IMG/VR virus record: IMGVR_UViG_2563366930_000002
Coordinates: 1-41,011 of that record
Strand: one strand, 5' to 3'
From: a virus
Taxonomy: Duplodnaviria; Heunggongvirae; Uroviricota; Caudoviricetes
Length of the DNA: 41,011 nt
Made by a program: the position numbers and the translations under genes. Below are positions 7,486 to 11,571 of this stretch, in pieces; positions within the stretch are counted from its first letter, which is position 1; each line of letters begins with the position of its first letter. The notes under the pieces were generated by a model, which was not told where the DNA came from, made no database searches, and was given only the letters and a program-made list of their open reading frames with translations.

Positions 7486-8190
7486 CTATAACCGATTGTA
7501 TTTTATTGACTCATGAATCAACGCCTTGCCCATTACATAAAGCTGATCCTGCGATTTTTCATCGATGTACCATTTCTCATAGGCAGGGTTATCCGAAAGA
7601 ACGGCTAGCTTGTCACCTTGCATTTGAAGACGTTTAACATGAAAAGTCTTACCGTAAACGAAAGAGTAAATTCCATCAGTCTGGAAGTGACGAACAGAAA
7701 TGTCGACAAACAGTCGATCTCCGGAAACGAGAGTAGGGGACATACTATCGCCATTTACAGTCATAACCTTAATATCATCCTGAGAACGGTTACCGAAAAG
7801 AGAACGGGCATGTTCTGTTGTGAACTCAATGGCGTAGAGCACATCAACATAGTCTGAAAGCATATAGGTTCCAGGTCCTGCGCTAACGCTAAGATCTAAA
7901 ACTTCTATCCTGTATACGTCGGGTTTTGTTGGATTGGGGATGCTTGCCATTTCCTTACATCCTTCTCTCTCGCCAACACCATATTCTAAATATGAAGCCG
8001 ATACCCCCAGAGCCAACGCAAGTTTATTCATGACAGAGGCACGAGGCTTCGCTGCGCCGATTGTGTATCGCCGCGCCATTTCATATGTAACGCCAACAAG
8101 ACTTTTGAGTTGGGTGACAGAAATTCCCTTGTTTGTCATTAACTCGTTTAGTCTCTTGGCGAAATCTGGATACTTCTGTTCTTCTACCAT
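7486..8190 (-). CDS. cI-like prophage repressor (XRE helix-turn-helix plus S24 LexA-like peptidase domain)
   Basis: N-terminal helix-turn-helix (KRLNELMTNKGISVTQLKSL); C-terminal S24 signature (VNGDSMSPTL with Ser, later Lys in HVKRL); longest ORF runs to 8247 but overlaps the operator, so start set at MVEEQKY (8226 also possible). Confidence 0.85.
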   Translation of the reverse strand: MVEEQKYPDFAKRLNELMTNKGISVTQLKSLVGVTYEMARRYTIGAAKPRASVMNKLALALGVSASYLEYGVGEREGCKEMASIPNPTKPDVYRIEVLDLSVSAGPGTYMLSDYVDVLYAIEFTTEHARSLFGNRSQDDIKVMTVNGDSMSPTLVSGDRLFVDISVRHFQTDGIYSFVYGKTFHVKRLQMQGDKLAVLSDNPAYEKWYIDEKSQDQLYVMGKALIHESIKYNRL

Positions 8191-8230
8191 AGGTAGAAGA
8201 TTACTCACATCACATACGCTCGTCATTTCT

Positions 8231-8265
8231 ATTTTAAGTAGTTGCAATTCGCTACTTTAAGTAGC
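8231..8265. promoter_or_regulatory. OR-like operator region between divergent repressor and cro
   Basis: Repeated and palindromic TTTAAGTAG / CTACTTTAAGTAG motifs in the intergenic region. Confidence 0.55.
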
Positions 8266-8589: not shown

Positions 8590-9141
8590 GTGGGTAAGCA
8601 TCACTGGAAAGTAGAAAAACAGCCTGAGTGGTACGTGAAAGCTGTCAGAAAAACTATCGCGGCGTTGCCGGGTGGTTACGCTGAAGCTGCTGACTGGCTG
8701 GATGTAACAGAGAACGCATTATTTAACCGCCTTCGTGCCGATGGCGATCAGATTTTCCCGCTGGGATGGGCAATGGTTTTACAGCGCGCAGCTGGCACTC
8801 ACTACATTGCGGATGCTGTCGCACAGTCTGCTGGTGGGGTGTTCGTATCGCTTCCTGAAATTGAGGAAGTAGAGAACGCCGATATAAACCAGCGCCTGCT
8901 GGAAGTCATCGAACAGATCGGGAGTTACTCAAAGCAGATTCGTTCGGCAATCGAAGATGGGGTAGTGGAGCCACACGAGCAGACAGCAATTAATGATGAG
9001 TTGTATCTGTCAATTTCGAAGCTCCAGGAGCATGCAGCACTGGTCTACAAAATCTTTTGCGCTCCAGAAAAGAGTGACGCCCGCGAGTGTGCAGCTCCGG
9101 GCGTCGTGGCGTTTTGTGTCTGTGGAGAAACTAACGCATGA
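8590..9141 (+). CDS. CII/YdaT-like early regulatory protein, GTG start
   Basis: GAGGAG then 6 nt then GTG at 8590; follows cro as in lambdoid immunity regions; family assignment tentative. Confidence 0.55.
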
Positions 9142-9476
9142 ACAGTTTAACAACACACTACCGTCGCTCGCAACTGATTGCGCTTCCTGTACCGGGTGGA
9201 AAAGCGAAGGTGGAGTATTGCTATGCAGTAAATGTACCAGGTGACAGGGTAATTGTAACCCACAGCTTTGCAGAGTGGGCTGTGGGTGATTTCAACCGGC
9301 AAAAGGAGACAGTCCTTTGCGACAAGTTAACCGCTGGTTCAAAGATCACTACGGAGTACCCGTCAGAGTCATTCGTTGGGAGCCGGAAACACAACGGGTT
9401 ATCTACCTCCGCGAAGGCTATGAGCATGAATGCTTCAGTCCGCTCGAACAGTTTCGTCGTAAATTCAGGGAAATAG
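9138..9476 (+). CDS. Hypothetical protein, 112 aa; C-terminal half may be a frame artefact
   Basis: ATGA overlap with upstream gene; N-terminal 50 aa look protein-like, but from about 9290 another frame looks better. Confidence 0.4.
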
Positions 9477-9496
9477 AGGTCGGTCATGAGCACTAA
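9317..9496 (+). CDS. Small basic protein, 59 aa, TTG start (not in ORF track); alternatively the frameshifted C-terminus of the upstream gene
   Basis: AGGAGA 7 nt upstream of TTG at 9317; translation [59 protein letters not shown]; stop overlaps the next gene's start. Confidence 0.35.
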
Positions 9497-10427
9497 ATTA
9501 ACCGGCTATGTATGGGATGGTTGCGCAGCGTCAGGCATGAAATTATCCAGCGTGGCAATTATGGCCCGCCTGGCTGATTTCAGTAATGACGAAGGTGTGT
9601 GCTGGCCATCAATTGAAACCATTGCCCGCCAGATTGGCGCGGGGATGAGTACCGTCAGAACGGCTATCGCACGGCTGGAAGCAGAAGGCTGGTTAACGCG
9701 TAAGGCGCGTCGCCAGGGTAACCGCAATGCGTCGAATGTTTATCAGCTTAACGTTGCGAAGCTTCAGGCAGCGGCATTTTCTCAACTGTCAGATTCTGAC
9801 CCGTCAAAATCTGACGCATCAAAATCTGACCCGTCAAAATTTGATGCGTCGAAATCTGGCAAAAAAGCGGGTTTTCACCCGTCAGAATCTGGCGGGGATC
9901 CGTCAGTAAAATCAAAACATGATCCGTCAGATAAAAAACCTTCTCGTCCGGACGCTTCGCAACCGGACACGCAGACGGCTGAACAGGATTTTTTAACTCG
10001 CCATCCTGATGCGGTTGTATTCAGCCCTAAAAAGCGCCAGTGGGGAACGCAGGATGATTTGACCTGCGCACAGTGGCTCTGGAAAAAAATCATCGCCCTG
10101 TACGAGCAGGCCGCCGAATGTGACGGCGAGGTGGTTCGTCCCAAAGAACCGAACTGGACAGCCTGGGCAAACGAAATTCGCCTGATGTGTGTGCAGGATG
10201 GTCGTACTCACAAACAAATCTGCGAGATGTACAGCCGCGTCAGCCGCGATCCGTTCTGGTGCCGTAACGTGCTCAGCCCGTCGAAGCTGCGGGAAAAATG
10301 GGATGAGCTTTCCCTGCGCTTATCGCCGTCCGTCAGCACGTACACCGAAAAACGCGAAGACCCGTACTTCAAAGCCAGTTACGACAATGTGGACTACAGC
10401 CAGATCCCGGCAGGATTCAGGGGGTGA
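9486..10427 (+). CDS. Replication initiator (lambda O-like replisome organiser) with N-terminal winged helix-turn-helix
   Basis: N-terminal helix-turn-helix (MSTVRTAIARLEAEGWL); internal low-complexity SKSD repeat encoded by iterons; position after cro/cII. Confidence 0.8.
   Translation: MSTKLTGYVWDGCAASGMKLSSVAIMARLADFSNDEGVCWPSIETIARQIGAGMSTVRTAIARLEAEGWLTRKARRQGNRNASNVYQLNVAKLQAAAFSQLSDSDPSKSDASKSDPSKFDASKSGKKAGFHPSESGGDPSVKSKHDPSDKKPSRPDASQPDTQTAEQDFLTRHPDAVVFSPKKRQWGTQDDLTCAQWLWKKIIALYEQAAECDGEVVRPKEPNWTAWANEIRLMCVQDGRTHKQICEMYSRVSRDPFWCRNVLSPSKLREKWDELSLRLSPSVSTYTEKREDPYFKASYDNVDYSQIPAGFRG
9788..9936. repeat. Iteron array inside the replication gene; candidate phage origin
   Basis: At least five copies of CCGTCA(A/G)AATCTGAC-like units followed by an A-rich tract (ATAAAAAACC). 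Confidence 0.6.
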
Positions 10428-10918
10428 TCATGAGTCTTTTGAATGAAGTTCAGAAATTCATTGAAGCCCATCCGGGGTGTACTTCCGGAGACATTGCGGA
10501 TGCTTTTGCTGGTTACTCACGGCAGCGCGTTCTGCAGTCAGCAAGCAAGTTACGTCAGAGTGGGCGTGTGGCTCACCGTTGTGAAGGAGATACACGCAGA
10601 CATTTCCCGCGCCTGACTGAGAGAGCGCAGGATCCGGAACCACAACCAGTTCGTGAAACCAGACCTGTGCGCAATTTCTATGTCGGCACTAACGACCCGC
10701 GGGTGATTTTGTGCCTGACCCGCCAGGCGGAAGAACTGGAGTCCAGGGGCTTATACCGTCGTGCTGCAACGGTGTGGATGGCGGCATTCCGTGAAAGCCA
10801 CTCCCAGCCAGAACGAAACAATTTTCTGGCGCGTCGTGAACGGTGTTTACGGAAAAGCAGTAAGCGGGCTGCATCAGGTGAAGAGTGGTATCTCTCAGGG
10901 AATTACGTGGGGGCTTAA
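10424..10918 (+). CDS. Hypothetical regulator with PerC-like C-terminal region
   Basis: C-terminal LESRGLYRRAATVWMAAF resembles the PerC/Pch family from memory; ATGA overlap with upstream gene. Confidence 0.5.
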   Translation: MIMSLLNEVQKFIEAHPGCTSGDIADAFAGYSRQRVLQSASKLRQSGRVAHRCEGDTRRHFPRLTERAQDPEPQPVRETRPVRNFYVGTNDPRVILCLTRQAEELESRGLYRRAATVWMAAFRESHSQPERNNFLARRERCLRKSSKRAASGEEWYLSGNYVGA

Positions 10919-11571
10919 TGAGTAATAAATATTGCCAGGCGCTGGTGGAACTGCGGAACAAACCAGCCCATGAACTGAAGGAAGTGGGCGATCAGTGGCG
11001 CACGCCGGACAACATTTTCTGGGGAATTAACACCCTGTTTGGCCCGTTTGTTCTGGATCTGTTCACTGACGGTGATAACGCCAAATGTGCTGCGTATTAC
11101 ACGGCGGAAGACAACGCGCTGGCGCATGACTGGTCAGAACGCCTTGCGGAGCTTAAAGGTGCTGCCTTTGGTAATCCCCCATACAGCCGCGCCAGTCAGC
11201 ATGAGGGGCAATACATCACCGGCATGCGTTACATCATGAAGCATGCCAGTGCCATGCGTGATAAAGGCGGGCGCTATGTTTTCCTGATCAAAGCTGCCAC
11301 CAGCGAAGTGTGGTGGCCGGAAGATGCAGATCATATTGCTTTTATTCGCGGGCGTATTGGTTTTGAACTGCCTGCCTGGTTTATCCCGAAGGATGAGAAG
11401 CAGGTGCCGACAGGCGCTTTCTTCGCTGGTGCTATTGCTGTTTTCGACAAGACCTGGAAGGGACCGGCAATCAGCTACATCGGGCGCGATGAACTTGAGG
11501 CGTGTGGTGAGGCCTTTCTGGCGCAGGTTCGCCAGCAGGCAGAAAAACTGGTCAGGGAGATGGCGGCATGA
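10918..11571 (+). CDS. Phage DNA N6-adenine methyltransferase (Dam family)
   Basis: FGNPPYSR catalytic motif; start at MSNKYCQ overlaps the upstream stop (TAATG). Confidence 0.9.
   Translation: MSNKYCQALVELRNKPAHELKEVGDQWRTPDNIFWGINTLFGPFVLDLFTDGDNAKCAAYYTAEDNALAHDWSERLAELKGAAFGNPPYSRASQHEGQYITGMRYIMKHASAMRDKGGRYVFLIKAATSEVWWPEDADHIAFIRGRIGFELPAWFIPKDEKQVPTGAFFAGAIAVFDKTWKGPAISYIGRDELEACGEAFLAQVRQQAEKLVREMAA

Follow-up and report, generated by a model that had tools for sequence, protein, structure and literature searches.

The window analysed here is the whole 41,011-nucleotide stretch of the viral record IMGVR_UViG_2563366930_000002 (IMG/VR). It derives from a tailed phage. The middle part of its replication initiator gene carries, one after another, a set of small palindromic repeats, an AT-rich element and a further palindrome. 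As judged from the sequence, this region (9788-9954) is very probably the vegetative origin of a temperate phage of the SfII/SfIV type, arranged like ori-lambda, the origin located inside gene O of phage lambda. An origin within the initiator gene, as in lambda, had been proposed in an earlier note on this DNA, and the proposal holds on several grounds (protein family, homology of the C-terminal domain, layout and constraint at the DNA level), albeit with differences in the N-terminal domain and in the size of the sites. The origin is of the ordinary lambda type and its classic lambdoid design is not surprising; novelty lies solely in an observation on the tail of the initiator, which ends like the DnaT protein of Escherichia coli. 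Shigella phages SfII and SfIV, Escherichia phage Kati and others match the 1.8 kilobases (kb) around the repeats with 98-99% identity. Relatives were taken from 80 genome loci (Escherichia to Providencia, Yersinia and Serratia) and 80 viral contigs (1.33 Mb). The coordinates of the features are listed in Table 1.

Table 1. Features of the putative origin region and its surroundings in the window (bp, base pairs).
Feature	Position	Strand	Sequence	Remark
cI-like repressor gene	7486-8247	-
DUF4222 gene	9317-9496	+		59 residues; PF13973, E=4.6e-19; PHROG 1343, E=2.9e-34
Replication initiator gene	9486-10427	+		313 residues
Iteron array	9788-9860		GTCARAWTCTGAC	five 13-bp near-palindromes, exact 15-bp period
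Unit 1	9788-9800		GTCAGATTCTGAC	perfect 6+1+6 palindrome
Unit 2	9803-9815		GTCAAAATCTGAC
Unit 3	9818-9830		ATCAAAATCTGAC
Unit 4	9833-9845		GTCAAAATTTGAT
Unit 5	9848-9860		GTCGAAATCTGGC
Unit 6 (proximal)	9881-9893		GTCAGAATCTGGC	within longer palindrome CCCGTCAGAATCTGGCGGG, 9878-9896; abuts AT-rich element
Conserved AT-rich element	9897-9938		GATCCGTCAGTAAAATCAAAACATGATCCGTCAGATAAAAAA	GATCCGTCAGTAA + 11 bases + GATCCGTCAGATAAAAAA; GATC at 9897 and 9921
Right-hand palindrome	9945-9954		CGTCCGGACG	perfect 10-bp palindrome right of AT-rich element
DnaT-like tail	10398-10424	+	SQIPAGFRG	8/9 identical to the extreme C-terminus of E. coli DnaT (SQIPPGFRG)
PerC/YfdN-like gene	10424-10918	+		164 residues; PerC domain at residues 100-151, E=8e-9; position of lambda P

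The earlier note had described at least five direct repeats, which were recovered at the same place together with a sixth, proximal unit. Every unit is itself an inverted repeat of the 6+1+6 type, a feature missing from that note. Tandem Repeats Finder reported a period of 15 with 4.3 copies (score 86) or, alternatively, a period of 30 (score 100), and the array was the highest-scoring tandem repeat of the window. When two or fewer mismatches to GTCARAWTCTGAC were permitted, 14 strand-hits were found in the window as against 2.9 +/- 2.1 in shuffled sequences (none of 100 shuffles reached 14), and 11 of these hits were concentrated in the 106 bp from 9788 to 9893. The six units correspond to codons 101-136, between the winged helix and the C-domain of the initiator. 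In the frame of this open reading frame (ORF) the array region is translated as SDSDPSKSDASKSDPSKFDASKSGKK...DPSVKSKHDPSDKK, so that the repeats do encode an SKSD linker as previously described. The comparison of repeat numbers suggested there was also carried out: among 78 near-identical viral contigs the array varied in whole 15-bp steps, with 5, 6, 7 or 8 sites corresponding to gene lengths of 308, 313, 318 or 323 codons, and 63 of the 78 contigs carried six sites. One IMG/VR contig (L168) has a frameshifted initiator copy of 140 residues, in which the iterons are read in another frame as QNLT repeats, indicating that the repeats can persist as DNA in a disrupted gene. The single-stranded folding of 9780-9945 was far more stable than that of shuffled sequences (z=-5.6); a reading of this result as an RNA or hairpin element was set aside, as repeated palindromes yield such stability automatically. 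Between units 5 and 6 we also noticed a weak terminator-like hairpin, CGGGTGAAAACCCG followed by CTTTTTTGCC, on the minus strand (9868-9881), and a scan of 9000-10600 for sigma-70-like promoters detected no site.

The initiator is composed of a winged helix (residues 1-98), a linker (approximately residues 99-161), a lambda-O-type C-domain (residues 162-280) and a tail (residues 283-313). In an AlphaFold2 model based on a 30-sequence alignment, the predicted local distance difference test score (pLDDT) was ~80 for the winged helix, below 50 for residues 102-161 of the linker and ~90 for the helical C-domain, and the tail was disordered. The stretch from the array through the right-hand palindrome encodes residues 101-156. 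The protein matched PHROG 391 ('replication initiation O-like') from end to end (E=8e-136), and the matches to the 'O-like' families PHROG 277 and 9773 spanned its C-terminal part. The homology to lambda O was confirmed by BLASTP (E=7e-26, 31% identity over 216 residues), being densest at residues 182-277. At the N-terminus, Pfam HTH_36 was detected at residues 23-70 (E=4e-11), along with GntR and related winged helices. PF04492 (Phage_rep_O), which lambda O itself matches with E=6e-36, was not among the Pfam matches of the initiator, nor did the Pfam scan return any Rep_3-type match, and a sequence search of PDB gave weak MarR-type matches only.

The relatives fall into three classes (A, B and C) by the putative recognition helix of the N-domain, and these go with three palindromes located at the same place and with the same 15-bp period: the helix STVRTAI with GTCAGAWTCTGAC, STVK[AS]AI with GTCAANNNTTGAC and STVI[TG].I with GTYCAGAWTCTGRAC. 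The A/C division is clean, and the A/B division was read by eye rather than counted, the class-B pattern GTCAANNNTTGAC at two or fewer mismatches also matching class-A sites. In each class the best palindrome adjoins the AT-rich element, for instance GGGGTCAATGGTTGACCCC in the class-B locus L009. Residues 1 to ~168 (the N-domain plus the linker) appeared to be inherited as a block, combined either with the lambda-O-type C-domain or with the unrelated Phg_2220_C, and the genes upstream of the initiator also differ among the loci. The combination of a block of N-domain and sites with varied partners is the classic lambdoid pattern. The N-domain presumably binds the palindromes encoded next to it.

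On the evidence of codon usage, selection in the linker region is on the DNA rather than on the peptide. In 63 non-redundant class-A linkers, motif matches (three or fewer mismatches) numbered 375, as opposed to 15 in the rest of the same genes, and a single reading frame was used throughout. Among the 249 x-S-x-S units of these relatives, the first serine was encoded by TCA in 222 cases and by TCT in none, and the second by TCT in 189 and by TCA in one; the third bases of the two codons are partners within the palindrome. As a control, 34 conserved four- or sixfold-degenerate residues of the N-domain were examined, for which the commonest codon had a mean frequency of 0.50 and the pairwise third-base identity was 0.38. 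Common descent thus fails to account for the bias of the serine codons. Consistent with selection on DNA, the linkers differ in peptide, being S-K-S-D (TCA AAA TCT GAC) in class A, S-D-S-E (TCA GAT TCT GAA) in L019 and P-E-T-E and P-D-S-G (CCA GAT TCT GGA) in L086, yet have the DNA core CAGAWTCTG in common.

Within the initiator gene, conservation of the DNA peaks in the AT-rich element, irrespective of the iteron class. The A-rich tract that the earlier note had placed after the repeats is present, as the 30-mer at 9906-9935 has an A+T content of 70%, and the 40-mer of lowest stability within the gene lies at 9905-9944. In 75 non-redundant relatives of every N-domain class, the codons for D-P-S-V were GAT (74/75), CCG (69/75), TCA (66/75) and GTA (68/75), so that GATCCGTCAGTAA hardly varies at its synonymous positions. 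A second copy, GATCC(A/G)TCAG, is located ~24 bp beyond the D-P-S-V codons; two GATC sites were found in 55 of the 75 genes and three in 12. The conservation is confined to ~40 bp, with synonymous divergence directly on either side, from Escherichia to Providencia and Serratia. This element is a candidate DNA-unwinding region. Together with the Dam protein encoded by the phage, the paired GATC sites suggest, speculatively, control by methylation or SeqA. To the right of the AT-rich element, the Providencia relatives (L013, L018 and L022) carry TTCGTCGCAGAATTCTGACGAA at the position equivalent to that of the lambda palindrome. The right-hand palindrome of ori-lambda, ATTCGTCAGAGAATTCTGGCGAAT (L083, ~1690-1715), resembles the class-A iteron core GTCAGAATCTGGC; this likeness and the Providencia TTCGTCGCAGAATTCTGACGAA may be relics of a shared origin ancestry.

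If the region is the origin, dimers of the initiator winged helix would bind the six 13-bp palindromes (9788-9893) in the linker-coding part of their own gene, and the resulting nucleoprotein array would destabilise the adjoining AT-rich, GATC-containing element, at which the replicative helicase would then be loaded. As the phage carries no loader and its initiator has a DnaT-like tail, the most likely route for this last step would be a direct contact of the tail with the DnaC-DnaB machinery of the host or with another partner of DnaT.

Several observations weigh against an origin of this kind. The AT-richness of the tract following the repeats is only moderate, since 9905-9944 reaches a z value of only 1.66 relative to the whole window, in which 7% of the positions are less stable. 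Neither the initiator gene nor the ori region contains a DnaA box (TTATCCACA, one or no mismatch), the sole DnaA-box-like site in 9000-10900 being at 9121, ~670 bp upstream of the array, and no consensus for integration host factor (IHF) was found in 9000-10900. The centre-to-centre distance of 15 bp (~1.4 helical turns) is tighter than the 20-24 bp of lambda, and the relatives P0015 and P0029, which may be defective prophages, have only one or two units. Classes A and B differ mainly in one symmetric pair of positions, and the 'covariation' between sites and N-domains is confounded by their physical linkage, which can yield part of the pattern. In addition, our literature search found no experimental report of binding, unwinding or autonomous replication for this lineage, and none on the origins of SfII, SfIV or SfV. 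Some of these points would suit palindromes that are bound by the initiator mainly for autoregulation or copy control (through a roadblock or handcuffing), with opening and helicase loading taking place elsewhere: the AT-rich element is not extreme, DnaA and IHF sites are missing nearby, and iterons of plasmids are known to serve initiation and control alike. Nevertheless, the order of iterons, AT-rich element and palindrome in an O-type linker fits the mapped ori-lambda, the DNA adjoining the palindromes is the most strongly conserved of the gene in all N-domain classes, and the window contains no further array, so that a mainly regulatory role appears improbable.

We give even less credit to two other explanations. 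The repeats might be a by-product of slippage in a disordered low-complexity linker, where the SKSD peptide or nothing at all matters and the DNA has no role in cis. Slippage would produce the copy-number polymorphism in whole units, and the linker is indeed predicted to be disordered. Such a process, however, does not call for (i) complementary serine codons at specific positions across genera whose N-domains are close to saturated at synonymous sites, (ii) palindromic units, which are unneeded for coding, (iii) a constant DNA core beneath a varying peptide (SKSD, SDSE or PETE), or (iv) the invariance of GATCCGTCAGTAA at synonymous sites, and it is thus very improbable that slippage is the whole story. 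Alternatively, the GATCCGTCAG... segment might owe its conservation to recent exchange at a recombination joint between the N-domain with its sites and the C-domain, instead of being an unwinding element. The block of N-domain and linker does occur with two unrelated C-domains, and the junction falls just past the element. Recent exchange is hard to reconcile with conservation restricted to ~40 bp and flanked by synonymous divergence on both sides from Escherichia to Providencia and Serratia, and the AT-richness, the paired GATC sites and the contact with the proximal iteron suit an unwinding region. The roles of joint and unwinding element are mutually compatible, and a joint in place of an unwinding element has, in our view, very little chance of being correct. 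We retain the view that 9788-9954 is very probably a lambda-type origin.

No helicase-loader gene had been apparent in the earlier note, and our searches agree. Searches by tblastn with lambda P, E. coli DnaC, YdaV of the Rac prophage and DnaB against the window, the complete SfII genome and the 80 viral contigs gave nothing at E<=1e-3, the best values in the window being E=5.5 with lambda P and 0.27 with a homologue of cluster D7, and the SfII annotation lists no helicase or loader. Given that no phage homologue of P, DnaC or DnaB was found, the helicase and its loader must be derived from the host. In the relatives, the genes 3' of the initiators form clusters, of which D7 corresponds to Phage_lambda_P (E=4e-59) with 39.5% identity to lambda P. 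It was the missing loader that led us to the tail of the initiator, an observation that could merit an experiment.

The initiator of the window ends with ...NVDYSQIPAGFRG and E. coli DnaT with ...EPDSQIPPGFRG. In the family alignment A1, P308, G310, F311 and R312 are nearly invariant, and of the ~110 clusters of DnaT orthologues listed nearly all end with IPxGFRG or IPxGFRGAK (one with GLRG). GFRGAK, the rarer variant, occurs in both DnaT orthologues and phage initiators; a match of this variant to the host was sought and not established, the species being different. Membership of the initiator in the DnaT family was rejected, as hhalign of A1 against DnaT aligned the last 10 residues only; PF17948 was absent from the Pfam scan of the initiator and no DnaT N-domain was detected in it, and DnaT itself matches PF17948 with E=4e-21. 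The IP(P/A)GFRG end is thus common to the initiator, DnaT (L085, 2979-3518) and YdaU of Rac, which are otherwise unrelated proteins. The 'primosomal protein' label on the phage gene comes from DnaT, which is primosomal protein I, and apparently rests on the tail alone.

The type of tail is associated with gene content. Initiators with a lambda-like tail (...HWNSPEAWENTL, ...NTDWIDG...; lambda O has ...TNTDWIYGVDL) were followed by a P gene in 8 of 8 cases, whichever core C-domain they had, and those with the ...IPxGFRG tail in none of ~46. In a third group, the DnaT-like tail is replaced by an extension of ~60 residues (ERDxAYRRFI...WNxIWK), with no P or DnaC gene nearby; this group comprises L013, L016-L022, L038, L054, L056, L063, L064, L071, L075, L076, L078, L081 and L082, from Providencia, Proteus, Yersinia, Rahnella, Ewingella and Buttiauxella. 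The DnaT-like tail is carried by host DnaT, YdaU of Rac (DUF1376), and HTH_36 initiators, whether their C-domain is of the lambda-O type or Phg_2220_C. Where a phage-encoded loader stands beside this tail (Rac and L089), it is a paralogue of DnaC. In E. coli K-12, YdaU (L091, 3120-3977) ends with ...LPDSAIPPGFRG (IPPGFRG) and precedes the DnaC-like YdaV, and L089, an HTH_36 relative, ends with ...EPDTEIPPGFRG and is likewise followed by a DnaC-like gene, an order that mirrors the dnaT-dnaC operon of the host. We also noticed that the initiator of L074, a Serratia metagenome-assembled genome, has the tail ...IPEGFNQNLPATNQGGTDDDFI, ending like the C-terminal peptide (DDDIPF) of SSB, and that the gene after it is DnaC-like, with 44% identity to E. 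coli DnaC.

It is attractive to speculate that the tail contacts the DnaC-DnaB machinery and substitutes for P, a role that we regard as possible rather than probable. By the same token, (D/E)xxIPxGFRG might, tentatively, be a portable peptide recruiting host helicase loading, be it DnaC-DnaB or another partner of DnaT. To be set against both ideas, the similarity covers only 9 residues (BLASTP E=0.009; hhalign probability 27%), and the structural papers on DnaT that were examined give no partner for residues 154-179 and call the mode of DnaB/DnaC recruitment unknown. The connection between O and DnaT is not wholly new, as HTH_36 'O' proteins and the DnaT C-terminal domain in a domesticated relative were noted earlier (Brezellec et al. 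2017, PMC5509034). Should the idea be correct, SfII-type phages would replicate by means of a single phage protein mimicking DnaT, and the tail would be a clue to the as yet undefined contact through which DnaT gives way to DnaB/DnaC during replication restart.

To the right of the cI-like gene, the order is a cro/YdaS-like gene, a cII/YmfL-like gene, an ORF of 112 residues, the initiator and the PerC/YfdN-like gene, followed by the Dam gene at 10885-11571 and by genes for a protein with a LexA DNA-binding domain, RusA and KilA-N. The product of the PerC/YfdN-like gene shows a weak link to MarR-type regulators in its N-terminal region (PHROGs). Genes of its cluster (D2) were found after many, not all, of the DnaT-tailed initiators, and because it is absent after some of them, the product is unlikely to be an obligatory loader. 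On the other side of the initiator, the DUF4222 gene overlaps the initiator start by 11 nucleotides at its 3' end and, in a different frame, the annotated YmfM-like ORF of 112 residues (9138-9476). The DUF4222 ORF is without annotation in the SfII and SfIV records. Of 73 genome loci, 58 have a homologue of it immediately 5' of the initiator gene, among them loci without the 112-residue ORF. The C-terminal half of the latter may be spurious, and the DUF4222 gene may be part of the replication module.

In the records examined (GenBank and RefSeq for SfII, GenBank for SfIV), no origin feature is given, and the genome papers of SfI and SfIV mention merely a 'replication module'. The initiator gene is labelled variously as 'O protein', 'primosomal protein' or 'helix-turn-helix protein'. 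With the present results, the origin can be placed in the annotation at 9788-9954 and the 'primosomal protein' label is explained by the match of the tail. The relatives amount to a natural experiment, in which one initiator core carries three alternative tails and the tail type predicts which loader, if any, is carried along. They yield a hypothesis, directly testable, on how temperate enterobacterial phages without a loader acquire DnaB, and may bear on the role of the C-terminal tail of DnaT.

Among known systems, ori-lambda is the closest. The RefSeq lambda record shows four iterons in the middle of O, then an A-rich stretch and then the palindrome ATTCGTCAGAGAATTCTGGCGAAT; a published description likewise places iterons and an AT-rich tract centrally within O, with four iterons in lambda and six in Shiga toxin (Stx) phages (PMC7466680). 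The phage studied shares with ori-lambda, and with Stx phages 933W and P27 (six iterons), the location of the origin in the middle of the initiator gene. It further shares with ori-lambda the order of dyad-symmetric sites, AT-rich region and palindrome, the last at an analogous position (CGTCCGGACG), and the encoding of a linker between a DNA-binding N-domain and a C-domain that is homologous in the two proteins; iteron number varies among relatives in both lineages. The N-domain of lambda O, however, is Phage_rep_O and that of our initiator HTH_36, and the sites of ori-lambda are ~18-19 bp long at intervals of 20-24 bp, whereas those studied here are 13-bp palindromes with a strict 15-bp period. 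The two conserved GATC sites of the AT-rich element also set it apart from ori-lambda, and lambda has a P gene and its own tail on O where the phage studied has no P and a DnaT-like extreme C-terminus. The classification of phage replication modules by Weigel and Seitz (2006) may already include this type.

The Rac prophage (oriJ; ydaU-ydaV of E. coli K-12) resembles the phage studied in that its initiator gene follows cro-like and cII-like genes (ydaS and ydaT), and Rac-like prophages carry close HTH_36 relatives of our initiator with a DnaC-like gene next to them (L089). The activity of oriJ as an origin has been reported (legend to Fig. S3 of PMC3945230; Potrykus et al. 2000). YdaU of K-12 differs from our initiator in having a DUF1376 N-domain, another C-domain and other linker repeats (AAGCAGATGTTCAA), and Rac has its own DnaC paralogue, which the phage studied lacks. 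Iteron plasmids such as pSC101, R6K, F and RK2 use a single winged-helix Rep protein, tandem repeats beside an AT-rich region, and DnaB plus DnaC of the host. Like the phage studied, they encode no loader. Their iterons, in contrast to its array, lie outside the rep gene as direct repeats, usually with DnaA boxes next to them, and no such box was found beside the phage array. The remaining likeness is that to E. coli DnaT, which shares the extreme C-terminal (D/E)xSQIP(P/A)GFRG-COOH with the initiator.

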